DNA of 64,000 nucleotides, taken from Escherichia coli O127:H6 str. E2348/69 (GTDB lineage Bacteria; Pseudomonadota; Gammaproteobacteria; Enterobacterales; Enterobacteriaceae). Of the stretch, positions 11,435-36,165 are shown one piece after another (positions within the stretch are counted from its first letter, which is position 1; each line of letters starts with the position of its first letter). The notes under the pieces are model-generated. The model had not been told where the DNA came from. It did not search any database and saw only the letters and a list, made by a program, of their open reading frames with translations. The DNA lies in the NCBI RefSeq assembly GCF_000026545.1, contig NC_011601.1; one strand, 5' to 3'. A program made the position numbers and the translations under genes.

Positions 11435-13482
11435 TGCGTGGCTCCTTGTACCTGTTCCGTGGCGGGCGTTAATGCCGGGGCTGTCCAGTCTGGCAAGCGG
11501 GCGAAAAGCTGGCAGACGTGTTGCTCCTGTTTTAATAAGGTCGGCAGGATGGCCTGCGAGGCGGGTGTTTCTTCAAGCGTTATTTGAGGAGAACGGCTGA
11601 GTGCAGTTGCCAGACCGGCGGCGTATTTCTCCAGTGCGTCGGCAAACTGACCTGCTCTGTCCGGCTGTAGTGCGTTATCCAGAGCCTGCGCCGAGTTCCA
11701 GGTTGCATCCCAAGCGTGAAGAATATCGCGGCCCTGACGAATAACCGTTTGCGAACGTTCAATCAGTAAAGCGCGTTCTTCGCTGTCCAGTTGACGCTCC
11801 AGCGCCACGCGTTGGCACATCTCTTCACAGGCATTAAACGCCGCATGCAGACCTATGCGAATTTGCAGATAAGTGCGCAGAGCCGTGACTTCCTGCTGGC
11901 GTGGGATCCGCATTACTTTACTCAACATACCCAGCGCGCCAGCCAGTTTTTGCGGCAGCGTGCGCGCTTCACTTTCAGGCCAGACAAAGGTGTAAATCAC
12001 CGCGGACACCACGGTACCAATGATGATACCCAGGGCGCGATCGCGAATTTCCACCAGGTCGTACACCGGGCCAAAAACGTTTTCGAGCGTGGCGAGCGCG
12101 AAGGTGACCACCATCTGTGTGCCGATATAAGAAGAGCGTTCAGAGCTGGTGGCAATCCATGCGCCCAACAGGAAAATCGGTGCCAGCACAAACAGCAATT
12201 CGACAATATTGTCCAGCCAGGGCATGACCAGCAGCGTGAATAACAGCGCCAGAATTGCACCGCAGAAGGCACCGCCAAAACGCAGCGCCATTTTCTGATA
12301 CGACGAACCAACATTCGGGTTAGCGACGATCACGCAGGTCAGCATACAGGTGTGAATGCCTTCCCAGTCCACGCCGCTGTAGAAGGTGTAACAGATCAAA
12401 CAGGCGAGCAGCGTTTTTACCGCGTAGCGCATATAGTCTGGATTGGTAAAAGCGTCGGCGACCATTGATGGCGGTTTGGCGGCGGGCGTTGGCGGCGTAT
12501 TCGGGTCCATCTGACCCAGTTGCAATAACGTCTGGCAGATATTCTCCAGGTTACATTCCCGTGCCGCCATCGCTTCACTTTCACTGATCCGCCAGTCGCT
12601 TTGCCAGCACTGACCTTCGGTAATGGAATGCTGCAGCTTGTTGATTTCTGAAGCTAATTTTTGTCGGAATTCAATAATTGCCTGAGAATCAGCAAAAGAG
12701 GTGGGATCGTAGCGATTCAGCGTCGAGTAAATGTAGGTTACCGTTGTCACGCAGCTTTGCCACCATGCGCTCTGGGTTCGCCAGTTGGCATCGTCCGCGA
12801 GGCAAAAGACATTGAGTTTTTGCAGCGCCAGCGCCTCTCTTTCAATCCGCGTTTCGGGTAGCGGTGCGAGGCTGTCCGTCAGGTGGCTAATGGCATCATC
12901 AAGCCGATCATTAAGCGCCTGATGCATCTGCGTAATGGCACGACTGGGAAACCACAGCACGCCGATTAACGTCATCAGCAAGGTTGGATAGAGGCCAACA
13001 ACGATACACCAGAGCGTTAAGCGCACGACCACTTCCGGATAGTCGAGCATGGCGGGGAAGGTTTGCCCGTAAATAGCGACAATGGCGACGGCGAAAAAGA
13101 CCAGCCCCAACCGATGGGTGCGCATCAAAAACATACCGCCCATCAGGATCGGTCCGGCGATGATCAATCGGATCAACGGTTCGCCGTATGACCATTTGTA
13201 GATCAAAAACAGGCTGCCGATCTCCAGCATCGTGGCGACCACAAACAAGATCGCCACAAATTTGGTGTAAAACGCGTTGGACTGAATACCGTAAAACAGC
13301 ACTGCCAGCGATAACGCCACAAAAGGGATCTCAAAAGTCATCGAGATCAGAATCACCAGCAGGCAGCCTACCCAGAGTTGCATAGTCTGCGGCACGCGGC
13401 CTGGTCGCCGCTCGCTTAACTCTTCATGAAAGAACGCCAGCAGCCTGACCACCGGTAATGGCAGGGAGTTGAGCGCGCTCAT
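11431..13482 (-). CDS. mdtO: Inner-membrane efflux component (AaeB/fusaric-acid-resistance family)
   Basis: 683 aa polytopic membrane protein; 4-nt overlap with mdtP. Confidence 0.88.
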   Translation of the reverse strand: MSALNSLPLPVVRLLAFFHEELSERRPGRVPQTMQLWVGCLLVILISMTFEIPFVALSLAVLFYGIQSNAFYTKFVAILFVVATMLEIGSLFLIYKWSYGEPLIRLIIAGPILMGGMFLMRTHRLGLVFFAVAIVAIYGQTFPAMLDYPEVVVRLTLWCIVVGLYPTLLMTLIGVLWFPSRAITQMHQALNDRLDDAISHLTDSLAPLPETRIEREALALQKLNVFCLADDANWRTQSAWWQSCVTTVTYIYSTLNRYDPTSFADSQAIIEFRQKLASEINKLQHSITEGQCWQSDWRISESEAMAARECNLENICQTLLQLGQMDPNTPPTPAAKPPSMVADAFTNPDYMRYAVKTLLACLICYTFYSGVDWEGIHTCMLTCVIVANPNVGSSYQKMALRFGGAFCGAILALLFTLLVMPWLDNIVELLFVLAPIFLLGAWIATSSERSSYIGTQMVVTFALATLENVFGPVYDLVEIRDRALGIIIGTVVSAVIYTFVWPESEARTLPQKLAGALGMLSKVMRIPRQQEVTALRTYLQIRIGLHAAFNACEEMCQRVALERQLDSEERALLIERSQTVIRQGRDILHAWDATWNSAQALDNALQPDRAGQFADALEKYAAGLATALSRSPQITLEETPASQAILPTLLKQEQHVCQLFARLPDWTAPALTPATEQVQGATQ

Positions 13483-21384: not shown

Positions 21385-21511
21385 AAATAACCTCTCTGCA
21401 CGAAATATCGTATTATTGCCTGATGGGCTACACTTATCAGGTCTACGTTCAGGTTATTTTGTTGGCCGGATAAGACACTTCATTAGCATCACTATCCGGC
21501 ATCATTCAGTT

Positions 21512-24267: not shown

Positions 24268-24597
24268 ATGAAACGCTTTCCGCTATTTCTTTTATTCACC
24301 CTGTTCACGCTGTCCACCGTTCCGGCCCAGGCCGATATTATCGATGACACCATTGGCAATATTCAGCAGGCGATTAACGACGCTTATAACCCTGACCGTG
24401 GGCGAGACTATGAAGATTCGCACGACGACGGCTGGCAGCGTGAAGTGAGCGACGATCGGCGCAGACAATATGACGACCGCCGCCGCCAGTTTGAAGATCG
24501 CCGCAGGCAGCTGGACGATCGCCAGCGCCAGCTGGATCAGGAGCGTCGGCAGCTAGAAGATGAAGAGCGGAGAATGGAAGATGAGTATGGGCGGTGA
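24268..24597 (+). CDS. yjdP: Small secreted, highly charged repeat protein
   Basis: Signal peptide MKRFPLFLLFTLFTLSTVPAQA followed by reiterated DDRRRQ-type repeats. Confidence 0.75.
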   Translation: MKRFPLFLLFTLFTLSTVPAQADIIDDTIGNIQQAINDAYNPDRGRDYEDSHDDGWQREVSDDRRRQYDDRRRQFEDRRRQLDDRQRQLDQERRQLEDEERRMEDEYGR

Positions 24598-24631
24598 TGT
24601 TGAGTTTAGAGCAGGCATCGCCCCTCACCCA

Positions 24632-25390
24632 TCACGCCACCCCAATCTCCATCCCATCAAACCCCGCCTCAAACCCCGACGGCAGTGCGTTTTCCATCAG
24701 CCACGCATCAAACTGGTGGTTGATATGGGTCAGAATCACCCGTGGCGAGCGGATAACCTGATTCAGCGCAAGCACGGTATTTAAATCACAGTGATTACGC
24801 GGTGCATCCTCGCGCGGCGGGTGGCTGCAATCAATCACCATTACCTGCGGCTGATTATTGCGTAAAAATTTCAGCGTTTTTTCCGGCAAGCCAGCGGTGT
24901 CAGACAGCCACGCCACCCGGCTGTGTGCCGTTTCCAGCAGATAACCGAAGGTCAGTTTTGAGTGGTTGAGCGGCAGGGGCGTGACCTGTAACCCCTGTAA
25001 ATCAAACACCACAAACGGTTCCATCGTGTGGCTGAAATCAAGCAGGCCCGGATGTTTAAACAGATCGTCGCAGCCCTGTTCATCCGGCGGGCCGTAGACC
25101 GGGATCTGATCGCCCACGCCCCAGCGCAGCGGAAACAGCCCCTGGACGTGATCCATATGATAATGCGTCAGCAAAAACTGCTGGAACGATCCGGGAGACC
25201 AGCGATCGGCGAGATCGTGCAGCCCGGCGTCGATCAGGGTGATCGCCCCGTTAAACTTCACTACGCCGCTGCACGGCTGGCGGCGATACTGCGGTGAGCG
25301 CAGCGCTCTGACGCAGGCTACGCACTCGCAGCCCCATGCCGGAACGCCCTGTGCGCCGCTGGTGCCGGTGAGCGTGAGGGTCAGGCTCAT
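24632..25390 (-). CDS. phnP: Phosphoribosyl 1,2-cyclic phosphate phosphodiesterase (metallo-beta-lactamase fold)
   Basis: Start at MSLTLTLTG (track extends 16 codons); HxHxDH motif (THYHMDH). Confidence 0.9.
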
Positions 25391-25391
25391 A

Positions 25392-25826
25392 TTACAGCGC
25401 CTTGGTGAAGCGGAAGTGGCTCTGCTCGTAGCCTTCACGCAGGTAAAAACGGTGCGCGTCGTGGCGCTTGACGTTGGTGGAAAGCTCGGTCATTTCGGCC
25501 CCAGCCTGGCGGGCTTCTTCTTCTGCCCATGCCAGTAATTTACTGCCGACGTTCAGACCGCGTGCCTGCGGCATCACCACCAGTTCCTGAATTTCGCCGA
25601 TCCAGTTGACATGATGCAGATGAAACTGCAAATGCAGGCCGATCATGCCGACAACCTCGCCATCCAACAGCGCCAGATGGTAGCGCATATTCGGGTCACG
25701 CAGGTTGGCGTTAAAGCCCACGCGAAACGCCTGGTGGTCAAACTCCGCTTGTTTTAGCTCACAAATCAGCGCGTAAACCGCGTCGGTGTCGTACTGCGTT
25801 GCCGGGCGAAGCTCACAAGCAGGCAT
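25392..25826 (-). CDS. phnO: Aminoalkylphosphonate N-acetyltransferase (GNAT)
   Basis: 144 aa GNAT fold in operon position. Confidence 0.9.
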
Positions 25827-26370
25827 GGTGTTTCTCCTTCTGATGAATCAGCGTCAGCAGCGTGTCGACCGACTGGCGCAGGCTGCCGTCATTATTGAGC
25901 GTAAGACAATCCTGAGGAGTATAGCGGGCAGCGCGCGCCAGCCGGGCGTTAATTTCACTGGCATTTTCACGACCACGGTTTTCCAGGCGCTGGCGCAGGA
26001 TCTCTGGCGAAACCTGTAAACAAACGGGCAGCAGCGCCGATTGATAGCGCGCCCGCGCCTGCGGCAGATGGGCGCGTGAGCCGTTGACCACCACGTCAAA
26101 TCCAGCGTGCAGCCAGAGGTCAATCTCGACGCCGACGCCATAATACAGACCGTTAGCGTGCCAGCTTAAGGCCAGAAGGTTCTGCCCCGCGCGGGTAAAA
26201 AACTCCTGCTCGCTCAGGGCGATATGGTTTTCACTTCCGGCGCTGGCGGCGCGCGTGATGTAGCGATGCGCTACCAGTAGCTGAGTTTGTTCCCGCTGGC
26301 GGAGTTCCGTCAACAGACTGTCTTTTCCGGAGCCAGAGGCCCCCATTAACCAAATCAGTTTTCCCGTCAT
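25813..26370 (-). CDS. phnN: Ribose 1,5-bisphosphate phosphokinase
   Basis: P-loop GASGSGKDS; 185 aa. Confidence 0.9.
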
Positions 26371-27506
26371 CAGAACACCCTTTTACCCTGACGCCAAACG
26401 TGGTCGATATGAATGTGGTTGCCCTTGCGATGCGCCAGCACCAGGTCGGCGCGTTTGCCCTCGCCAATCACCCCACGATCCTGGAGATTCAGTGCCTGGG
26501 CCGGGTTTTTGGTCACCAGCCTCACCGCCTGCGGCAGCGTAAAGCGGTTGCTCTGGTCATCGGCCACGCGAAACGCCGCATCCAGCAGGCTGGCGGGGTA
26601 GTAGTCGGAAGAGAGGATATCCAGCAGGCCAAGCTGCGCCAGTTCACTGGCCGCCACGTTGCCGGAGTGCGAACCGCCGCGCACGATATTCGGCGCGCCC
26701 ATCAGTACGTTCATGCCGTGCTTGCGCGAGGCTTCTGCCGCTTCGAATGTGGTAGGAAATTCGGCGATCACGCTGCCAAGCTGATGGGATTGGGCTACGT
26801 GGGCGTGCGTGGCGTCATCGTGGCTGGCGAGCGCAATGTGTCGCGCGCGGCACATTGCGGCGATGGATTCGCGATTCGGCTGTGACCAGCGTGCGGCGAG
26901 CGCCAGTTGCTCCTCTTCGTACTGTTGCATCTGCGCATCGGTGAGCGAGTATTTGCCCTGATAATATTCACGATATTTTTCGCGGTTGGCGAACTGGCGC
27001 TGGCCCGGTGAGTGATCCATCAGCGACACCAGCGTTACCGGTTCGCGCTGTACCAGTTTTTCAAACAGCGGCAGCGTGGTGTGATGCGGCAGTTCGCAGC
27101 GCAGGTGCAGACGGTGCTCGGCACGGTTGACGCCGCGTTTCTGCGTCTCTTCGATGGCGTTGATCATCTTCTCCAGATTCTCCAGCCGATCGCCGCCGTC
27201 GCGTACATCACCAATCGCCACGGCGTCCAGCACGGTGGTGATGCCGCTCGCCACCATCAGCGCGTCGTGGCTGCTCATCGCCGAGTGGGCAGGCCAGTCA
27301 ACTTTCGGGCGCGGGGTGAAGAATTTATCCAGATTATCGGTATGCAGCTCAATCAGCCCCGGTAGCAGCCAGCCGCCTTCGCCGTCCATTGCTTCTGACA
27401 GGTGACTCTGGCTTTCGGCAAAGGCGCGGATTTCGCCGTCCTGCATCTCCAGAGAACCGTGTACCACCTCGTTTTCCAGCACCAGTTTGACGTTATTGAT
27501 AATCAT
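26370..27506 (-). CDS. phnM: Amidohydrolase-family C-P lyase pathway enzyme
   Basis: 378 aa amidohydrolase-family protein. Confidence 0.9.
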
Positions 27507-28183
27507 GAAGAGACTCCCATTGGGTGCAGGCGGTCGGCGACTTGCTCGCGTACGGCTTCGTCATGGAAGATACCGACGATGGCCGCGCCGCGGGCTTTGG
27601 CTTTGCGGATCAGTTCCACTACGGCGGCGCTGTTTTTAGCGTCCAGCGAGGCGGTAGGTTCGTCGAGCAGCAGAATGGGGTAGTCGACGATAAAGCCGCG
27701 GGCGATGTTGACACGCTGTTGTTCGCCGCCGGAGAAGGTCGATGGTGCCAGGTGCCACAGACGTTCCGGCACGTTCAGGCGCGTGAGCAGACGCGCGGCT
27801 TTAGCGGCACAGGCTTCACGCGGTACGCCGGTATCGAGCAGCGGCTGCATCACCACTTCCAGTGCCGAAATACGCGGGATGACGCGCAGAAACTGGCTTA
27901 CCCAGCCGACAGTGGTTTTGCGGATCTCCACCACTTTGCGTGCTGGCGCGGTGACCAGGTCGACCCATTCATCACCGTGTTTGATCTGGATTTGCCCTTC
28001 GTCGGGTAGATAGTTGGCATACAGCGAGCGTAGCAAAGTTGATTTTCCACTGCCGGAATGGCCGTGGAGTACCACGCATTCGCCGGCGTTGACGGTGAGT
28101 GAGGCGCCTTGTAATACAGGCAGGCGCACGCCGTTTTGCTGGTGCAGGATAAAGGTTTTACTGACGTTTTGTACGTTAATCAT
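27503..28183 (-). CDS. phnL: C-P lyase system ATP-binding protein
   Basis: Start at MINVQNVSK (track extends 38 codons through the REP); Walker [10 protein letters not shown]. Confidence 0.88.
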
Positions 28184-28204
28184 TTTTCGCCTCGTGGTTC
28201 GGGT

Positions 28205-28289
28205 GTCGGATGCGACGCTGATGCGTCTTATCCGACCTACGGGGAGCGCATTTGTAGGCCGGATAAGGTGTTTACGCCGCATCCGGCAC
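28205..28289. repeat. Pair of REP units between phnL and phnK
   Basis: gtcggatgcgacgc...cttatccgacctac and gtaggccggataagg...gcatccggca motifs. Confidence 0.7.
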
Positions 28290-28293
28290 CGGC

Positions 28294-29052
28294 TCAATTC
28301 TGCAAAACCGATGACACCAGCAACTGGGTATACGGATGGTGTGGGTCGTCGAGCACGCGGTCAGTTAACCCACTCTCCACCACTTTCCCTTGCTTCATTA
28401 CCAGCAAACGGTCCGCCAGCAGACGGGCGACGCCTAAATCGTGGGTGACAATCACTACCGCCAGGTTAAGCTCCATCACCAGACCGCGGAGCAGGTCCAG
28501 CAGGCGCGCCTGTACCGACACATCCAGCCCGCCAGTGGGTTCATCCATAAACACCAGCTTCGGATGCGTCACCAGGTTGCGGGCAATCTGCAAACGTTGC
28601 TGCATGCCGCCGGAAAAGGTGGTCGGCAGGTCGTCGATACGGTTAGCGGGAATCTCCACCTCTTCCAGCCACTTCTGCGCGGTGGCGCGAATATCGCCGT
28701 AATGACGCGCTCCGGTTGCCATCAACCGTTCGCCGATATTGCCGCCTGCCGACACCTGGCGGCGCAGGCCGTCAAGCGGATGCTGATGTACCACACCCCA
28801 TTCGGTGCGCAGCAGGCGACGGCGGTCGGCCTCGCTCATCGCATACAGCGAACGGTTCTCGTAGCGAATTTCCCCTTGCTGTGGCGTCAGGCGGGCGGAA
28901 ATTGATTTCAGTAGCGTGGTCTTCCCGGAACCGGACTCCCCAACAATGCCCAGAACTTCTCCCGGCCATAAATCAAAAGAGACATCGCTGAAACCTTTGC
29001 CCGGGGCATAAAGGTGGGTCAGGTTATTGACCGAAAGTAACGGTTGATTCAT
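28294..29052 (-). CDS. phnK: C-P lyase system ATP-binding protein
   Basis: Start at [11 protein letters not shown]; Walker [10 protein letters not shown]. Confidence 0.9.
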
Positions 29053-29894
29053 TGGCTTTTGGCCTCGCTCTGTTGGCGGCAATAATCGGTATCGGAGCAG
29101 ACAAACATGCGGTTTCCGGCGTCATCCAGCACCACTTCATCAAGATAGCTGTGGGTCGATCCGCAGATGGCGCATGGTTCATCCCACTGCTGGACGGTGA
29201 ACGGATGATCATCGAAATCGAGGCTTTCCACGCGGGTAAACGGTGGCACGGCATAGATGCGCTTCTCGCGCCCCGCGCCAAACAGTTGCAGGGCGGGCAT
29301 CATGTCCATTTTCGGGTTATCGAATTTCGGGATCGGCGACGGGTCCATTACGTAGCGCCCGTTCACCTTCACCGGATAGGCGTAGGTGGTGGCGATATGA
29401 CCGAAGCGGGCGATATCTTCATACAGTTTCACCTGCATCACGCCGTACTCCTCCAGCGCGTGCATGGTGCGCGTTTCCGTCTCTCGCGGCTCAATAAAGC
29501 GCAGCGGTTCGGGGATCGGCACCTGGAAGATAACTATCTGATCTTCGGTCAGCGGCGTTTCGGGTATGCGGTGACGCGTCTGGATAAGTGTCGCATCGTC
29601 CGTGCGCTCGGTGGTGTTCACCCCGGTCACGCGCTTAAAGAAGTTACGAATCGACACGGCGTTGGTGGTGTCGTCTGCGCCCTGGTCAATCACCTTCAAC
29701 ACGTCGCTTTCGCCAATCACGCTGGCGGTGAGCTGAATGCCGCCGGTTCCCCAGCCGTAGGGCATCGGCATCTCGCGTCCGCCAAACGGCACCTGATAAC
29801 CGGGGATTGCCACCGCTTTTAAGATAGCGCGGCGGATCATGCGTTTGGTCTGCTCGTCGAGGTAAGCAAAGTTGTAGCCGCTCAGATTAGCCAT
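29049..29894 (-). CDS. phnJ: Radical-SAM C-P lyase catalytic subunit
   Basis: Start at MANLSGYNFAYLDEQTKRMIRR, 63 codons inside the track ORF; conserved C-terminal cysteine cluster. Confidence 0.9.
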   Translation of the reverse strand: MANLSGYNFAYLDEQTKRMIRRAILKAVAIPGYQVPFGGREMPMPYGWGTGGIQLTASVIGESDVLKVIDQGADDTTNAVSIRNFFKRVTGVNTTERTDDATLIQTRHRIPETPLTEDQIVIFQVPIPEPLRFIEPRETETRTMHALEEYGVMQVKLYEDIARFGHIATTYAYPVKVNGRYVMDPSPIPKFDNPKMDMMPALQLFGAGREKRIYAVPPFTRVESLDFDDHPFTVQQWDEPCAICGSTHSYLDEVVLDDAGNRMFVCSDTDYCRQQSEAKSQ

Positions 29895-30951
29895 GGTTCT
29901 GCTCCTGTTGCAGACGTTTGAGTAGCTCCAGTTCGGCCTGGAAATCGACGTAGTGCGGGAGTTTGAGATGCGAAACAAAGCCTGCGGCTTCGACGTTGTC
30001 GGCATGGGCCAGCACGAACTCTTCATCCTGTGCCGGACCTGTTGCGTACTCGCCGTATTCCGGTGCCTGCAACGCACGGTCAACCAGCGCCATCGCCATT
30101 GCTTTGCGCTCGCTCATGCCGAACACCAGCCCATAGCCGCGTGTAAAATGCGGTGGTTCATCCGGCGGGTCGATAAAACCGTTGACCATTTCACACTCGG
30201 TCATCAACAATTCGCCGACGTTCACCGCAAATCCCAGCTCTTCCGGCACAATAAATATATCGATATAGCCACTGCGAATTTCGCCTGCGAACGGGTGATT
30301 GCGCCCGTAACCGCGTTGGGTGGAGTAGGCCAGCGCCAACAAATAGCCTTCGTCACCGCGCATTAATTGTTGTAGACGGGAAGAACGCGAACAGGGATAA
30401 ACCGGCGGCGTGCGGGTGATGTCGTCCGGTTGTGCGCCGCTATCTTCTTCAAACTTCGCCAGCCCCTGACGCGCCAGCAGGCTGAAGACGTGTGGCGACG
30501 GTTGCTGTTCGCTGTCAGCGGTGGTCAGCGTTGGCGTTTCGCCGTTTGCCAGCAGGGTGAAATCGAGCAGGCGATGGGTGTAGTCGTAGGTGGGGCCAAG
30601 CAGTTGGCCGCCGGGAATGTCTTTATAAATTGCTGAAATACGCCGTTCTAGACGCATCCCGGTGGTGTCGAGCGGCTCACTGACCGCCAGCTTCGCCAGC
30701 GTGGTGCGGTAGGCGCGCAACAGGAAAATCGCTTCGACGTTATCGCCGCTGGCCTGTTTCAGCGCCAGCGCGGCCAGCTCGCGGTCGGCAATACCGCCTT
30801 CGGTCATCACGCGATCTACCGCGAGGTTAAGCTGCTGTTCAATCTGGGCGACGCTCAGTTCAGGCAAATCAGTATCGCCCCGGCGTCGGCTCTCTTGCAG
30901 GGCGTGGGCGGCGTCGATCGCCTTTTCGCCCCCTTTCACGGCAACGTACAT
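29887..30951 (-). CDS. phnI: C-P lyase core complex subunit
   Basis: Start at [10 protein letters not shown] (track begins at an upstream GTG); 8-nt overlap with phnJ. Confidence 0.9.
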   Translation of the reverse strand: MYVAVKGGEKAIDAAHALQESRRRGDTDLPELSVAQIEQQLNLAVDRVMTEGGIADRELAALALKQASGDNVEAIFLLRAYRTTLAKLAVSEPLDTTGMRLERRISAIYKDIPGGQLLGPTYDYTHRLLDFTLLANGETPTLTTADSEQQPSPHVFSLLARQGLAKFEEDSGAQPDDITRTPPVYPCSRSSRLQQLMRGDEGYLLALAYSTQRGYGRNHPFAGEIRSGYIDIFIVPEELGFAVNVGELLMTECEMVNGFIDPPDEPPHFTRGYGLVFGMSERKAMAMALVDRALQAPEYGEYATGPAQDEEFVLAHADNVEAAGFVSHLKLPHYVDFQAELELLKRLQQEQNHG

Positions 30952-31535
30952 CAGCACACCTCCACATGAGTGGTTCGCGGAATAGCCAGCAGGCGCTCGC
31001 CGCAGGTCAGGATCAGGTCGATGCCGAGCGGGAACGGGTGCGGGCGCTCGGTAAGTTCATGAAGAATGCACTTTGGCAGTTGCGGGGCGATCATCCGTTC
31101 TTCGGCAATACCTGCGCCGGTGAGGCGCAACATACGCCCACCGCTCAGGCTGGTGACCTGTAAAATCAGCGTTGCGCCCGCTTCTGGTGCAACGGCAGTG
31201 CCGGTGGAAAGGGCGTTGAGCTGCTCGCTGGAGATCGCCTCATCTGTTACCGCGAAGGTCGCCTGTTTCGGCTGATTAACCAGCGGCGCGTTGGTATGAA
31301 AACGCAGGCTCTGATTGACGATATCGTTGCTCAATGGTGCGGCAAGCCACACCGGCGTGTCGTTATCGGCCAGCGTCAGCAGCACGCTGGTGGTGGCGAT
31401 ATTCAGCGGCTGCCAGCCGCGCTTGAGCTGATGCAGGGCGACAATCACGCCCGGCTCGCTCATGGCCTTTAACAGGCGACGAAAACTGTGCTGGGCATCC
31501 TGCACGGGAAGCATAAAAGCGGTTTCCAGGGTCAT
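30951..31535 (-). CDS. phnH: C-P lyase core complex subunit
   Basis: 194 aa; overlaps phnI start and phnG stop. Confidence 0.9.
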
Positions 31536-31984
31536 GCGTTGTCTCCGCGAACCATCGTAAAGAAGTCGACCCGGCTGGCGTTCACTTCGGCCTGACGCGC
31601 GGCAATGCGTGCCATACGGTTAGCGTCCAGCGGGGCAATAAGGGTTTCTGATAAGTTTTGAAAATGGCGGGTTTGCTGCATCAGCGCGTCAATCAGCGCG
31701 CAGCGTTCGGCGTGCTGTTTGTCGCGCCCCAGTACCCAGCTATAGCCGAGTGTGCCGTCAGTCAGACGCACGGCGGCGCGGGTGAGCGTGGCGTCGCCAG
31801 CAAAAAAGCGTTCGCCGGTGCCGCCCATTCGCGCCTGAATCTGCACCAGGCCAGTTTCAGCGGCGCGGATCACCTCATAATCGGCGTTGATGTTCAGCGC
31901 CTTCAGGCGGGCTGCCAGTTCAGCCGGTTGGCTGTGCGCCAGCACGGACATCCAGTGCTGGCGGGTCGCGGTATCTGCGTGCAT
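31532..31984 (-). CDS. phnG: C-P lyase core complex subunit
   Basis: 150 aa; 4-nt start/stop overlap with phnH. Confidence 0.9.
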
Positions 31985-32710
31985 TCAGTGCTCCATAGTG
32001 AATTCAATCATGTCGGCGCGCGTCAGGCTGACGGAGTACTCCGCCGGGCTGCTTTCACCGTCACGGTGGTTAAGGGTGCGCACGCACAGCAGCGGCGACA
32101 GATTCGGGATTTCAAGACGCTGGCACTCTTTGGCCTGGGCGCGGCGGGCGCTGATCCGCGTCTGGCTGCGTCGTAGCGTAATCCCCGTTTGCTCGCGCAG
32201 AAAATCGTGCAGCGAACCGCTGTCGAAACGTTGCAGCGTCGGCCAGAGGGTGAGGTCCGCAAAGTAGTGGTCGATTAAACAGAGCGCGACGCCGTTGACC
32301 CGACGCAGGGTGCGCAGGTGGATGACGTTCTCCCCCTCGGTTATCCCCAGCGCGTCAGCGACGTGACCGGAGGCGGGGCGCAGCACTGATAGCAATTTTT
32401 CGCTGGTGGGATGGCTGCCCTGGTCCAGCAGGTTCTGGCTAAAACGCGCCTGGGCGTTGAGCGGGTAATCGAACGGGCGCATCAGCACCAGTACGCCGAC
32501 GCCCTGACGGCGCTGTACCCAGCCTTTTTCCACCAGTTGGTCGATGGCGCGGCGCAGGGTGTGGCGGTTCACCTCAAAGCGTGCCGCCAGTTGCTGCTCG
32601 GCGGGAAGATAGTCGCCGCAGCGGTAGTGTTGACGAAGCTCCTGCTCAAGTTTTGCGGCTATCTCCTGATAGCGTGTTGGGTAGCTGGTCGGATGTGTAG
32701 ACAAGTGCAT
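31985..32710 (-). CDS. phnF: GntR-family repressor of the phn operon
   Basis: HTH N-terminus and UTRA-like C-terminal domain; start at MHLSTHPTSY. Confidence 0.88.
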   Translation of the reverse strand: MHLSTHPTSYPTRYQEIAAKLEQELRQHYRCGDYLPAEQQLAARFEVNRHTLRRAIDQLVEKGWVQRRQGVGVLVLMRPFDYPLNAQARFSQNLLDQGSHPTSEKLLSVLRPASGHVADALGITEGENVIHLRTLRRVNGVALCLIDHYFADLTLWPTLQRFDSGSLHDFLREQTGITLRRSQTRISARRAQAKECQRLEIPNLSPLLCVRTLNHRDGESSPAEYSVSLTRADMIEFTMEH

Positions 32711-32730
32711 AGATATCAATGCCTCGCTTA

Positions 32731-33510
32731 TCAGATAAAGTGCTTACGCAACCGTTGAGAGAGGAAATCCAGCAGGCTGACCGTGACGATGATGAGCACC
32801 ATCAGGGCGCAGGTTTGCTGGAACTGGAAACCGCGAATCGCTTCCCACAGCGTGACGCCAATTCCGCCCGCACCAACCATACCGACGACGGTCGCCGAGC
32901 GGACGTTGGATTCGAAGCGATAGAGAGAGTAGGAGATCAGCAGCGGCATGACCTGCGGTAGTACGCCGTAAAGGATCTCTTCCAGCTTGTTGGCACCGGT
33001 GGCGCAAATGCCCTCCACCGGGCCGGGTTCAATCGCTTCTACCGCTTCGGAAAGCAGTTTGGAAAGTACGCCGGTGGTGTGGATAAACAGCGCCAGCACG
33101 CCAGCGAACGGGCCGAGGCCGACGGCGACCACGAACAGCATGGCGAAGACCATTTCGTTAATGGCGCGGCAGGCGTCCATCAGGCGGCGTACAGGTTGGT
33201 AGACCCACCACGGTACCAGGTTTTCAGCGCTCATCAGGCCGAAGGGGATGGAGAGAACCACCGCCAGCGCGGTGCCCCAGACGGCGATTTGCAGCGTGAC
33301 GGCCATTTCGGTGAGGTAATCCTGCCACTGGCTGAAATCGGGCGGGAAGAAGTCGGCGGCGAACGTCGCCATGTTGCCGCCATCTTTAATCAGCGTAAGC
33401 GGTGCCATTTCCGCGCCCTGCCACGAGACGACCAGCACGGCGATAACAACGGCCCAGCTCAGAAGCGAGAACCAGCTGCGCTTGGGTGGGGCGATGGTGA
33501 TGGTTTGCAT
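32731..33510 (-). CDS. phnE: Phosphonate ABC transporter permease, intact frame
   Basis: Uninterrupted ORF; start at [17 protein letters not shown]; the track's upstream extension ([13 protein letters not shown]) is REP-derived. Confidence 0.85.
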
Positions 33511-33526
33511 GTTTGGCTCCGGTCTG

Positions 33527-33614
33527 TAGGCCGGATAAGGTGCTTGCACCGCATCCGGCATCAACGTCTGCACATTGTCGGATGCGACGCCGGGGCGTCT
33601 TATCCGACCTACGA
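33527..33614. repeat. Pair of REP units between phnD and phnE
   Basis: gtaggccggataagg...gcatccggca and gtcggatgcgacgcc...ttatccgacctac. Confidence 0.7.
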
Positions 33615-33615
33615 T

Positions 33616-34632
33616 TTACTGCACCGCTTTACTCACCGAACTCATTGCGCTTAACGCGTTGTTCAGGCGGTCCAAATCATCCAGTTGCGCCTGAATGGCG
33701 GTGGTTTTTGCCAGCTTGTCCTGTTCGTTCAGCCCTTTGTTGTCCTTCACGCTTTGCATCTCTTTAAACAGTGCGAGCTGGCGAATCGGCACCAGTTGCA
33801 AGTCGCTGGAGGCGCGGAACGGCGCCCAGCCCAGGCGCTCCAGCACCGCTTTCTCTTCCGGCGTTTTGCCGTAATTCATAAAGAAGTCGTAGATCTTGTC
33901 TTTAGTGGTTTCGGACAGATTTTTGCGCCAGACGATCGGATCGCCTGGGATCAGCGGCGATTTCCAGATCACTTTCAGCTCTTTGAGCTTCTCCGGCGCG
34001 GAGGTTTTCAGCTTGTCGAGGTTTTCGGTGTTGTTGGTGGCGACATCCACTTGCTTGTTAGCGACGGCGAGGGCGTTGGTTTCATGCCCGGCGTTGACGG
34101 TGCGCTTAAAGTCGCTGGCGGAGATATTGTTTTTAGCGAAGACGTAGTAGCCGGGGACGAGGAAGCCGGAGGTAGAGTTAGGATCGCCATTGCCGAAGGT
34201 GAGATCTTTCCGCTTCGCCAGCAGATCGTTCAGGTTGTTGATCGGACTATCTTTGTTGACGATCAACACGCTCCAGTAACCCGGCGATCCATCCGCCGCG
34301 ACCGTCTGGGCGAAGACCTGGCCGTTGGCGCGATCCACCGCTTCCATCGCCGACAGGTTGCCGTACCAGGCGATATCCACTTTATTGAAGCGCATCCCCT
34401 GGATAATGCCCGCGTAGTCCGGGGCAAAGAAGGCGTTTACCTTTACGCCCAGCTTCTTCTCCATATCCTGTAAGAACGGCGTCCATTGCGGTTTCAGGTT
34501 TTGCTGTGATTCCGTTGAAATAATGCCGAAATTCAGCGCCTTTTCCTGCTCTTCGGCGTATGCCGGATTTAACAGGGTGCTGAGGCTGAACATGCTGGTG
34601 AAGGCCAGCGAGGCAATTATCTTAGCGTTCAT
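33616..34632 (-). CDS. phnD: Phosphonate periplasmic binding protein
   Basis: 338 aa with signal peptide. Confidence 0.92.
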   Translation of the reverse strand: MNAKIIASLAFTSMFSLSTLLNPAYAEEQEKALNFGIISTESQQNLKPQWTPFLQDMEKKLGVKVNAFFAPDYAGIIQGMRFNKVDIAWYGNLSAMEAVDRANGQVFAQTVAADGSPGYWSVLIVNKDSPINNLNDLLAKRKDLTFGNGDPNSTSGFLVPGYYVFAKNNISASDFKRTVNAGHETNALAVANKQVDVATNNTENLDKLKTSAPEKLKELKVIWKSPLIPGDPIVWRKNLSETTKDKIYDFFMNYGKTPEEKAVLERLGWAPFRASSDLQLVPIRQLALFKEMQSVKDNKGLNEQDKLAKTTAIQAQLDDLDRLNNALSAMSSVSKAVQ

Positions 34633-34656
34633 TCGTTTTCCTCAATGATGGGGATG

Positions 34657-35445
34657 TCAGGCAGCTTTCGCGTTCTCTTCGACGCGGTTAATGCTGCGGT
34701 AGAGATGGTCAAAACGTTCGTTATCAAACTGTTGGCTGCAGCCGTCGTAGAAGACGTGCCCCTGGCGCAGGGCGACGATGCGTTCGCAGTAGCGCAGGGC
34801 GTAATCCACCTGATGCAGCGTGACGACCACGGTAATGCCGTCGTTCTGGTTGATGTCGCGCAGGGTGTCCATCACGATGCGTGCCGATTCCGGGTCCAGC
34901 GAGGCGATGGGTTCGTCAGCGAGAATGACCTTCGCCTGCTGCATCAGCGCGCGGGCAATCGCCACACGCTGTTGCTGGCCGCCGGAGAGTGTGGAAACGC
35001 GTTGATGGGCAAAGTGCACCATGCCAACGCGGGTCAGCGCCTGTAACGCGCGCTGTTTCTGCTCGCGGGTGAAGTAGCTAAAACAGGTTCGCCAGAATGG
35101 CGTGCTGCCGAGCGCGCCAATCAGCACGTTCTCCAGTACGCTCAGGCGATTCACCAGGTTGAATTGTTGAAAGATGTAGCCGGTATGGGCGCGGCTTTTG
35201 CGGATATCGCGGGCCAGACGGCCTTCGCGCTGGACAGTGCGGCCCAGCAGCTCGATATGGCTACCGACAGATTTATCGCCGGTAATCAAACCGCTTAAGT
35301 GACGTAAAAGGGTGGATTTTCCGGAACCCGACGGCCCAAGCAGAGCCACCATTTCACCATGATGAATGTTCAGATCAACCGCGTGCAGCGCCTGATGCTG
35401 ATTGAAGGTTTTGGCGAGCTTCTCGACACGGATAATCGTTTGCAT
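34657..35445 (-). CDS. phnC: Phosphonate ABC transporter ATPase
   Basis: Walker [10 protein letters not shown], signature LSGGQQQR. Confidence 0.92.
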
Positions 35446-35577
35446 GATGCAGCCTCCCTAAAAAAGTGGCTCCATCGTGGCGGATTATTGTGACGATTTG
35501 GTTAATTAAAAGTGACTAACAGATGAAGAGTTAACGGGAATTCGATGACAGTGCGGGAGGGCGGGCCTCCCGGCGGG

Positions 35578-36021
35578 TTATTGCGTTGGCTGTTGTTTGA
35601 TGACATTAATCATCCACGGTACGCCAAATTTATCGGTGACTTTGCCAAAGCCATGCGCCCAGAACGTTCCCTGCCAGGCCATTTCGATTTTTCCGTTGGC
35701 GGCAAGGTTATCAAACCAGCGTTTTCCTTCTTCCACCTGTTGCGAATCGAGCACCAGCGTAAAGCCGGAGTAGCTGGCTTTTCCTGACGGCATGGCATCG
35801 CTCATCATGATGTCGCTTCCGGCAATGCGCACGTTGGCATGCGCGATGGCGGTATCGGGAAATTGCATTCCGGAAGGGCAGTTTTCGGCGCTGTCCTGCG
35901 CTGATTTCGGCATTTCGCCGAAGCTGATTTTATAGAGCAGTTCCGCGCCCAACGTACGTTGATAATAGGCAATCGCGTCGGAACAGTTACCGGCAAAAGA
36001 GAGGTAGGGACTTAACGGCAT
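35578..36021 (-). CDS. yjdN: VOC/glyoxalase-family protein (PhnB-like)
   Basis: 147 aa. Confidence 0.8.
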   Translation of the reverse strand: MPLSPYLSFAGNCSDAIAYYQRTLGAELLYKISFGEMPKSAQDSAENCPSGMQFPDTAIAHANVRIAGSDIMMSDAMPSGKASYSGFTLVLDSQQVEEGKRWFDNLAANGKIEMAWQGTFWAHGFGKVTDKFGVPWMINVIKQQPTQ

Positions 36022-36085: not shown

Positions 36086-36165
36086 AGCCTGATAAGACGC
36101 GGTCAGCGTCGCATCAGGCAGTCGCCACCGTTGCCGGATGCGGCGCGAGCGCCTTATCCGGCCTA
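36086..36165. repeat. Pair of REP units between yjdN and yjdM
   Basis: gcctgataagacgc...gcatcaggc and gccggatgcggcgc...ccttatccggcctac. Confidence 0.7.

Follow-up and report, generated by a model that had tools for sequence, protein, structure and literature searches.

The closest described system is the phn operon of Escherichia coli K-12 and B, which under P starvation is transcribed as a single 14-gene phnC-P message whose levels decrease along it (PMC3734233). Two other kinds of system bear on how such an operon may be expressed. Coupled E. coli gene pairs such as hyfHI and astDB (Huber et al. 2019, 2023) have junction distances of −4, −1 or −8 nt, carry the Shine-Dalgarno sequence (SD) in the upstream ORF, lie on one polycistronic mRNA and encode products that are partly subunits of heteromeric complexes, all of which the phn genes share. 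Intercistronic REP/BIME elements of the type described for malE-malF and hisJ-hisQ (Higgins 1982/1988, cited by PMC12306157) create differences in expression between genes of one operon; in phn, REP pairs directly follow phnD, the gene for the binding protein, and phnK.

We analysed a window of 64,000 nucleotides from E. coli O127:H6 str. E2348/69, onto which the RefSeq annotation was placed (L001 coordinate + 18631). The region of interest runs from phnG to phnP on the minus strand, within the 14-gene C-P lyase operon phnCDEFGHIJKLMNOP. All 14 genes, phnC to phnP, are annotated in order on one strand with 100% DNA identity to E2348/69, and all 14 CDSs are intact, each reading without interruption from an ATG to its one stop. 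The locus shares with the K-12/B operon its 14 genes, their order, the CDS lengths, the F→P junction distances (identical in K-12 MG1655) and a 110-nt spacer between phnK and phnL. The E2348/69 and K-12 alleles are 92-95% identical inside the operon, as against 97-99% in the flanking genes, and phnE is intact in E2348/69, with two copies of an 8-bp unit where K-12 has three. PhnJ and PhnL are near-identical to chains of PDB entries 4xb6, 7z15 and 7z16 (PhnJ against 7z15_D/4xb6_D, E = 8e-194; PhnL against 7z15_K, E = 2e-142).

Junction geometry

Distances between the minus-strand genes were taken straight from the sequence, with negative values for overlaps, and they resolve into two tight runs of cistrons, phnF-G-H-I-J-K and phnL-M-N-O-P. 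The first opens with the gene for the GntR-type regulator PhnF (31985..32710), whose TGA abuts the ATG of phnG (31532..31984, core subunit of 150 aa; distance 0, TGAATG); the SD of phnG, GGAG, lies 7 nt upstream, within phnF. The start of phnH (30951..31535, core subunit of 194 aa) shares 4 nt with the phnG stop (−4, ATGA), phnI (29887..30951, core subunit of 354 aa) has 1 nt in common with the phnH stop (−1, TGATG), and phnJ (29049..29894, the radical-SAM C-P lyase subunit of 281 aa) shares 8 nt with the end of phnI (−8, ATGGCTAA). The run ends with phnK (28294..29052), which encodes a 252-aa ABC ATPase bound to PhnJ and overlaps phnJ by 4 nt (−4, ATGA). The sole break between phnG and phnP follows, at +110 nt. 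The second run begins with phnL (27503..28183, a second ABC ATPase of 226 aa), which has its own SD, GAGG, 6 nt upstream. It continues through phnM (26370..27506, 378 aa; −4, ATGA), phnN (25813..26370, 185 aa; −1, TGATG) and phnO (25392..25826, 144 aa), which overlaps phnN by 14 nt (−14) and has the SD AAGGAG 7 nt upstream, to phnP (24632..25390, 252 aa), which starts 1 nt after the phnO stop (+1, TAATATG) and has a weak SD. An earlier note on this DNA had described nearly every junction from phnG to phnP as an overlap or a gap of 1 nt or less. This holds for eight of the nine, and both quoted examples, ATGA at phnG/phnH and 8 nt at phnI/phnJ, are exact; the phnK/phnL exception had gone unnamed.

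The F/G junction and seven of the nine G→P junctions lie between −8 and +6 nt, the two outside being N/O (−14) and K/L (+110). Genome-wide, 707 of 2,987 co-directional E. coli pairs (24%) fall within this range (PMC10666635). At that background, at least seven of nine such junctions would arise by chance with a binomial P of 9e-4, and with P = 0.025 at an assumed operon-internal rate of 40%. The run of phn junctions is denser than average, yet not extraordinary for a long operon: the stop-to-start packing of the phn genes is a real, ordinary and already known operon layout.

REP pairs and mRNA levels

The 110-nt phnK–phnL spacer (28184..28293, minus strand), as judged from its sequence, REP cores and fold, contains a BIME, a pair of REP palindromes in inverted orientation that together form a single long hairpin, the first of them beginning ~6 nt past the phnK stop. 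A second pair occupies the 105-nt phnD–phnE spacer (33511..33615, minus strand), beyond the region that the earlier note covered, and starts 3 nt past the phnD stop. We took as REP/BIME elements GC-rich imperfect palindromes of ~35 nt that match the E. coli REP consensus and exist in many extragenic copies, as these do. The REP core GTAGGYCGGATAAG occurs six times in the window, where 0.06 are expected, always outside CDSs, with two inverted copies apiece in the K/L and D/E spacers (at 28227-28240 and 28254-28267 in K/L). Predicted folds are far more stable than those of shuffled sequences, at −52.8 kcal/mol (z −5.8) for K/L and −50.9 kcal/mol (z −5.2) for D/E. The D/E pair matches the Rfam family naRNA4 on the plus strand at 68.7 bits, reaching the gathering score, and the K/L pair falls below it. 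The K/L spacer is also polymorphic: ~89% of E. coli genomes carry the REP pair, and ~10% an unrelated 176-nt repeat.

Both spacers coincide with steps in K-12 RNA-seq data (PMC10294691 Table S1). mRNA drops 8.2-fold from phnK to phnL and 9.3-fold from phnD to phnF, each at a REP gap; these are correlations, and polarity from the frameshifted phnE of K-12 may contribute to the D→F step. By contrast, per-kb mRNA of phnG, H, I and J stays within 1.8-fold. The phn pairs resemble the malE-malF and hisJ-hisQ type, as PMC12306157 relays it, in their stable hairpins and in an upstream gene that tops its segment in mRNA, beyond which levels are 8-9-fold lower; they differ from it in that the phn effect on mRNA stability is correlative and comes from K-12. 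The same source cites Liang et al. 2015 for reduced translation of the upstream gene when no more than 16 nt separate a REP from the stop codon. The phn REPs lie within that distance, and the effect so described would oppose any benefit of the REP to upstream protein output.

Coupling, stoichiometry and the alternatives

We consider it probable that the Pho-induced phn mRNA carries two translationally coupled runs, interrupted at the REP pairs, where its abundance steps down. The region is the catabolic part of the minus-strand operon, which is read as one Pho-induced mRNA. On this mRNA a ribosome ending one cistron would sit at the next start and either re-initiate or keep the start region open so that another 30S subunit can bind, and ribosome flux would be handed down each run. 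On an evenly abundant mRNA, this would favour similar synthesis rates of PhnG, H, I and J, which form the complex G2H2I2J2, and coupling would keep the long mRNA covered by ribosomes. Because every gene has a usable SD, partial coupling is more likely than strict coupling. None would be expected across the stable 105-110 nt hairpins at phnK/L and phnD/E, the only places where the runs are broken. With coupling barred at the REP gaps and mRNA stepping 8-9-fold, expression between three tiers (CD, (E)F–K and L–P) would be set at the mRNA level rather than by coupling.

Termination-reinitiation coupling has been reported for four of five native E. coli −4 pairs, short stop-start distances are enriched 4.5-fold among subunits of heteromeric complexes, and in generic E. 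coli experiments a spacer of ~20 nt nearly abolishes coupling (PMC6728339, PMC10666635). The phn overlaps of −4, −1 and −8, with the SD inside the upstream gene, belong to the class with documented coupling, a likeness to hyfHI and astDB that is one of geometry; N/O, at −14, falls outside the −8 to +6 nt range of documented efficient re-initiation. A literature search, with the classical phn papers outside its coverage, found no experiment on phn translational coupling. Translational coupling in phn is plausible, given also the junction conservation described below. The earlier claim that overlap implies coupling is too strong, since one of the five tested native pairs was uncoupled, and the further step from coupling to fixed stoichiometry does not follow, since downstream products stand several-fold above upstream ones in some coupled operons.

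Fixed stoichiometry of the core complex in particular has partial support only. The geometry class, the conserved tightness of G-K and the even mRNA of phnG, H, I and J speak for it, and the last makes near-equimolar synthesis plausible. Against it, overlaps are equally dense between proteins outside the complex, namely from the PhnF regulator to PhnG and at L/M, M/N, N/O and O/P. Purified Phn(GHIJ)2 has been found with one PhnK and also with two, although phnK joins phnJ through ATGA, and PhnK and PhnL, 1:1 in Phn(GHIJKL)2, nevertheless flank the only broken junction, with mRNAs ~8-fold apart.

Overlaps between genes for separate enzymes, and from the regulator gene into phnG, would also be expected if coupling mainly guarded the 11-kb mRNA against Rho-dependent termination and RNase when P starvation makes ribosomes scarce, with stoichiometry secondary. 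That mRNA still declines along the operon, and that a phnO::kan deletion is polar, points the same way. This explanation leaves the ~100-nt structured spacers around phnD and at K/L unaccounted for, and short distances are enriched genome-wide for complex subunits. We find it somewhat doubtful as the main account, and it is not mutually exclusive with coupled runs between REP pairs.

A different possibility is that operon compaction, together with the ease with which ATGA or TGATG arises, produced the overlaps under weak selection or none, that the cistrons initiate independently, each at its own SD, and that the layout is silent on stoichiometry. Each tight-run start does have its own SD, ~6-10 nt upstream and embedded in the 3' end of the preceding gene. 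Ribosome-binding sites at tight junctions are no more occluded than elsewhere (mean computed opening energies of 10.2 kcal/mol at tight and 9.6 at loose junctions, and 13.3 ± 3.7 at random operon positions), so the mRNA fold does not force dependence on upstream translation. The native −4 pair bioBF showed no coupling, and the abundance of −4 spacing has been ascribed in part to ease of evolution in a review (PMC12548453). At O/P, phnO::TnphoA'-9 interrupts phnO translation and leaves phnP function intact (doubling time 160 vs 180 min; PMC3463581), so this junction at least is not strictly coupled. Overlaps between enzymes outside the complex being just as frequent also fits, as does the horizontal spread of a cluster that is often plasmid-borne (215 plasmid records, including an archaeal one), which would favour compactness.

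Conservation nevertheless makes compaction alone unlikely. In 11 lineages, 43 of the 44 G/H, H/I, I/J and J/K junctions come to +4 nt or less (the set comprises E. coli, Citrobacter, Sinorhizobium, Variovorax, Mesobacillus, Thermus, the archaeon Halorientalis, a Dysgonomonadaceae plasmid, Arthrobacter, a Proteus plasmid and Paracoccus), and the overlap lengths vary by lineage from −1 to −20, which indicates that proximity has been maintained, and re-created, rather than one sequence inherited. The −14 overlap at phnN/phnO also occurs in Citrobacter. In the same loci, phnD-adjacent junctions are typically +22 to +155, so spacing is not uniformly minimised. Between the K-12 and E2348/69 alleles, 6 of the 300 nt that make up the junction windows (−24 to +6) are different, as against 6.0% over phnG-P (P = 7e-4), making junctions three times more conserved than gene bodies.

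Extending the coupled-run reading, we tentatively suggest an operon built as these three tiers, phnCD, phn(E)FGHIJK and phnLMNOP. Overlaps may equalise translation within each, and mobile REP hairpins may break coupling and set mRNA steps of 3-9-fold between them.

Start sites and consequences for C-P lyase

All these distances depend on the chosen starts. For 14 of 14 phn genes, ranking the in-frame candidates by SD puts the annotated start first, with best anti-SD duplexes of −3.2 to −10.6 kcal/mol, stronger than at any alternative start; the strongest is GGAGGTG of phnI, at −10.6 kcal/mol. The starts given earlier for PhnJ (MANLSGY), PhnI (MYVAVKG) and PhnL (MINVQNV) prove correct on SD strength, homologue N-termini and PDB chains alike. 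Compared over ten other lineages, all PhnJ homologues begin at the position of MANLSGY, leaving the 63-aa extension of the mechanical ORF unmatched (alignment A1), the 38-aa extension of PhnL likewise has no counterpart (A2), and PhnI N-termini agree, with Tyr2 invariant (A3). Chains 4xb6_D and 7z15_D begin at M1 of MANLSGY and 7z15_K at MINVQNV, in complexes expressed off the native operon, and the N-terminal amine of PhnI is resolved as a Zn ligand (PMC9947105).

Longer frames are open from a TTG at 30083 for phnJ (344 aa), a GTG at 30957 for phnI (356 aa) and a TTG at 28297 for phnL (264 aa), the last overlapping the phnK TGA (TTGA) in a frame that no stop interrupts across the REP of E2348/69, K-12 or Citrobacter; were they real, the junction geometry would differ. 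Their SDs are absent or negligible (0 to −2.4 kcal/mol, where the annotated starts have −5.9 to −10.6), and 10 of 10 other lineages lack counterparts of the extensions. The phnL extension is REP-encoded, and in ~10% of E. coli the unrelated repeat takes its place, with an in-frame stop 16 codons upstream, as in the EC19 allele. In Citrobacter the extension has another length and another sequence. In view also of the structures and the functional PhnI N-terminus, the longer ORFs are artefacts, that of phnL reading through a REP element, and their use as starts is highly improbable and already close to refuted.

The earlier warning that start assignment is sensitive to small errors was apt, as two real annotation discrepancies illustrate: the start calls of Citrobacter phnJ and K-12 phnE are probably wrong or inconsistent. 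The RefSeq starts of phnI, phnJ and phnL can be trusted. For heterologous expression of C-P lyase, whether for glyphosate/phosphonate degradation or structural work, the native G-H-I-J-K block is best kept whole; expression levels change at the K/L and D/E spacers, which makes them the obvious sites at which to split the operon or adjust its expression. The practical value of the junctions themselves is small, and the most informative part is the repeat-filled gap with its roughly eight-fold mRNA drop. Since the K/L spacer is polymorphic, natural E. coli alleles may have different PhnK:PhnL ratios and, as a result, different C-P lyase activity.

Junction geometry of the phn operon

The 7,353-bp interval from phnP (24632-25390, minus strand) to phnG (31532-31984, minus strand) matches E. 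coli O127:H6 E2348/69 at 100% identity and was found in 5,413 of 5,426 complete E. coli genomes. RefSeq annotation, mapped by adding 18631 to coordinates of the annotated record of the locus, places the entire operon, phnCDEFGHIJKLMNOP, on the minus strand at 24632-35445, and all 14 annotated phn CDSs translate with an ATG start and a single terminal stop. Read from the sequence as stop-to-start distances (negative for overlaps), the junctions, all on the minus strand, are +24 nt (C/D), +105 nt (D/E), +20 nt (E/F), 0 nt (F/G), −4 nt (G/H, ATGA), −1 nt (H/I, TGATG), −8 nt (I/J, ATGGCTAA), −4 nt (J/K, ATGA), +110 nt (K/L), −4 nt (L/M, ATGA), −1 nt (M/N, TGATG), −14 nt (N/O) and +1 nt (O/P). The earlier note described near-universal overlap, or gaps of at most 1 nt, from phnG to phnP, and this is borne out at eight of nine junctions (≤ +1 nt), the exception being K/L; its examples, ATGA at phnG/phnH and 8 nt at phnI/phnJ, are both exact. 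The geometry from phnF to phnP in K-12 MG1655 is identical.

Among E. coli co-directional gene pairs, 707 of 2,987 (24%) lie at −8 to +6 nt (PMC10666635). Finding at least seven of nine junctions in this range has P ≈ 9e-4 at the 24% background, and P ≈ 0.025 if 40% is assumed for operon-internal pairs. The phn run is denser than average, yet unexceptional among long operons; for contrast, junctions in the als operon next door are +127, −22 and +10. At each junction, residue 2 of the downstream protein limits which overlap is possible. PhnI has Tyr2 in all 11 aligned lineages, and since an ATGA overlap cannot accommodate TAY as second codon, the 1-nt TGATG at 30949-30953 is the tightest possible phnH/phnI junction.

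For other lineages, distances were read from phn loci annotated on plasmids and chromids, using annotation tables with alignment and sequence checks and no uniform script. In the order G/H, H/I, I/J, J/K and K/L, they are −4, −1, −8, −4 and +110 in E. coli E2348/69; −4, −1, −11 (annotated +46, start corrected), −4 and +89 in Citrobacter; −1, +4, −4, −4 and +33 in Sinorhizobium; −4, +1, −4, −4 and −4 in Variovorax; −4, −13, −20, −8 and +11 in Thermus; −4, −1, −8, −4 and −1 in the archaeon Halorientalis; −4, −17, −8, −8 and +8 on a Dysgonomonadaceae plasmid; −4, +2, −4, −4 and −4 in Arthrobacter; +4, −1, −4, −8 and −1 on a Proteus plasmid; and −4, −1, −4, −4 and +3 in Paracoccus. Mesobacillus has +14, −1, −1 and −1, with a different gene order at K/L. 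Thus 43 of 44 junctions linking phnG, H, I, J and K are ≤ +4 nt across 11 lineages including E. coli, and because overlap lengths vary among them, what is kept is proximity, as opposed to a single ancestral sequence. The K/L distance varies between −4 and +110, and junctions adjacent to phnD are usually +22 to +155.

Between K-12 and E2348/69, only 6 of 300 positions differ at −24 to +6 around ten downstream starts, versus 6.0% divergence over phnG-P (P = 7e-4). From phnD to phnO (within 24632-35445, compared with the K-12 locus) the two strains are 92-95% identical, with differences mostly at third codon positions; the flanking alsB, alsR, rpiB, yjdP, yjdN and yjdM are 97-99% identical. Against the E2348/69 allele, most E. 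coli genomes are in a 90-95% identity band. These patterns suggest that the phn haplotype may be an old divergent or recombined one. The phn locus of the chromosome also turns up in two plasmid-collection matches labelled as E. coli plasmids, CP054241.1 and NZ_CP134663.1, with lengths of 834 kb and 4.9 Mb, which are probably chromosome fragments or entire chromosomes mislabelled as plasmids.

Translation starts

All candidate starts of each phn gene (ATG, GTG or TTG, in frame and as far back as the upstream stop) were scored for pairing with the 16S 3' end. In every gene the best Shine-Dalgarno (SD) sequence is that of the annotated start (−3.2 to −11.6 kcal/mol), and the longer-ORF starts, phnJ TTG 30083, phnI GTG 30957, phnL TTG 28297 and ATG 28282, phnK TTG 29082 and phnP GTG 25438, score 0 to −4.0 kcal/mol. 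When the longest mechanically called ORFs of PhnJ, PhnL and PhnI were aligned with homologues from ten other lineages, homologue N-termini matched MANLSGY, MINVQNV and MYVAVKG, respectively, and no counterpart of the 63- (PhnJ), 38- (PhnL) or 2-residue (PhnI) extension was found. PDB chains of PhnJ (4xb6, 7z15-19) and PhnL (7z15, 7z16) start at the same residues, in complexes expressed from plasmids carrying native phnGHIJK or phnGHIJKLMNOP DNA, and the PhnI N-terminal amine is resolved as a Zn2+ ligand (PMC9947105). Given the SD ranking, the alignments, the PhnJ and PhnL chains, and the PhnI amine and Tyr2, the three starts chosen in the earlier note are correct, and proteomic support for the longer upstream starts is very unlikely.

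The 264-aa mechanical phnL ORF is a read-through of the K/L repeated palindrome (REP) element. A TTGA overlap with phnK in this frame might relay ribosomes through the REP; we judge this unlikely, as the overlap has no SD, the extension is unconserved, the frame is closed in an alternative allele, and the purified complex contains the 226-aa form of PhnL.

Annotated starts elsewhere deserve comment. In Citrobacter freundii NZ_CP151862.1 (7992-8049 of the extracted locus), PGAP places the phnJ start 19 codons past the conserved N-terminus, which puts it at +46 relative to phnI. With a start at GTG 7992, preceded at 6-nt spacing by AGGAGG, phnJ would regain MTTNLSGY and overlap phnI by 11 nt, so the PGAP start is probably mis-called. 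The phnE start (window 32731-33573; K-12 locus 11444-12282) is also annotated inconsistently: PGAP uses ATG 33510 (259 aa, SD GGAG), and the ATG chosen in the K-12 record is 17 codons farther upstream, within the REP element and without an SD. The 8-bp unit GCTGGCGT occurs twice in E2348/69 phnE, which is therefore intact, versus three times in K-12, where it causes a frameshift. Long ORFs antisense to phn genes (plus strand, 29052-29822, 28136-28702 and others, ≤ 256 aa) come from a mechanical list, and their status as genes is unsupported.

Probable coupling and subunit stoichiometry

Four of five native E. coli pairs at −4 nt were found to be coupled, a spacer of ~20 nt nearly abolishes coupling, and subunits of heteromeric complexes are 4.5-fold enriched at short distances (PMC6728339, PMC10666635). 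Because the phn geometry belongs to the class with demonstrated termination-reinitiation, coupling within phnF-K and within phnL-P is the most likely reading. A literature search combining “translational coupling” with phn terms returned no paper treating phn coupling and no phn-specific test. The earlier note took the overlaps to imply translational coupling and fixed stoichiometry of the C-P lyase core; this is a fair interpretation of the G-H-I-J(-K) block but too strong as an implication.

Moving from coupling to a fixed stoichiometry of the core complex is the weaker step, for several reasons. Junctions outside the complex (F/G, L/M, M/N, N/O and O/P) are equally overlap-dense, and coupled operons may still yield several-fold unequal outputs. 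Purified Phn(GHIJ)2 carries either one or two copies of PhnK (PMC9947105), and the uncoupled K/L junction separates two subunits, PhnK and PhnL, present at a 1:1 ratio in Phn(GHIJKL)2. A transposon insertion interrupting phnO leaves phnP function unimpaired (PMC3463581). Every phn gene has its own SD, and the ribosome binding sites are not unusually structured: the opening energy of −18 to +10 around each start (in a −70 to +50 context) is 10.2 kcal/mol at tight junctions, 9.6 at loose ones and 13.3 ± 3.7 at random operon positions. As tight and loose sites are similar and both lie below random, this measure does not discriminate unfolding-type coupling from free initiation.

REP-containing spacers and transcript levels

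Two REP palindromes in inverted orientation, GCCGGATGCGGCGTAAACACCTTATCCGGCCTAC and GTAGGTCGGATAAGACGCATCAGCGTCGCATCCGAC, make up the 110-nt K/L spacer (28184-28293, minus strand). Across the window the expected number of REP cores is 0.06 and the observed number is six, of which four occupy the K/L and D/E spacers and the others lie at 21461 and 36153. The predicted hairpins of the K/L and D/E pairs have energies between −51 and −53 kcal/mol (z ≈ −5.5). Matches to naRNA4 (RF02564), the Rfam family of REP-derived nucleoid-associated RNA, occur in the phnD/E spacer (33529-33609, plus strand, antisense to phn mRNA; 68.7 bits) and between yjdN and yjdM (36086-36163, minus strand; 88.9 bits). A same-length K/L spacer with the REP pair is present in ~89% of E. 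coli genomes. In ~10% (e.g. EC19, 398-579 of the extracted allele) the junction holds an unrelated 176-nt GC-rich palindromic repeat, with the final ~22 nt (SD and ATG of phnL) identical to the REP allele and the phnL frame closed by a stop 16 codons ahead of its ATG. The Citrobacter spacer is 89 nt with one REP, and its phnL-frame extension is open but of other length and sequence.

Under P starvation, the phn operon is one transcript with coverage declining along it (PMC3734233). In K-12 at 0.2 mM phosphate, DESeq2-normalised wild-type counts per kb (PMC10294691 Table S1) are 41,000 for phnC, 140,000 for phnD, 15,100 for phnF, 15,700 for phnG, 11,200 for phnH, 14,800 for phnI, 20,300 for phnJ, 29,600 for phnK, 3,600 for phnL, 7,000 for phnM, 9,900 for phnN, 5,800 for phnO and 2,200 for phnP. 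Levels of phnG, H, I and J lie within 1.8-fold, and phnD and phnK are the most abundant in their respective segments. The largest changes between adjacent genes are D→F (9.3-fold, to which the K-12 phnE frameshift may contribute polarity) and K→L (8.2-fold), and both coincide with REP-filled spacers (33511-33615 and 28184-28293). The mal and his operons offer precedent for intercistronic REP barriers. Classically, such elements act as barriers and stabilise the segment of mRNA that lies upstream (Higgins 1982/1988, as cited in PMC12306157), a role that the K-12 steps would fit by correlation. The REPs start ~6 nt past the phnK stop and 3 nt past the phnD stop, and for REPs ≤ 16 nt from a stop, reduced translation of the preceding gene is reported (Liang et al. 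2015, as cited in PMC12306157).

A promoter and terminator consensus scan of 24300-35800 gave counts equal to the shuffled expectation, with none within the K/L spacer. Deletion of phoB in K-12 leaves 87-230 normalised counts for phnN, phnO and phnP and 4-27 for phnC-phnM, which suggests a weak PhoB-independent internal promoter, predicted near the phnM 3' end (25813-27506 region).

The phn operon and its gene layout are already known, the overlaps are real and were correctly described, and the links of stop/start overlap to coupling and complex subunits are textbook matter surveyed genome-wide. One addition alone is of mild interest: polymorphic REP-type putative insulators divide the operon into tiers that match the mRNA steps, a new instance of a known mechanism.
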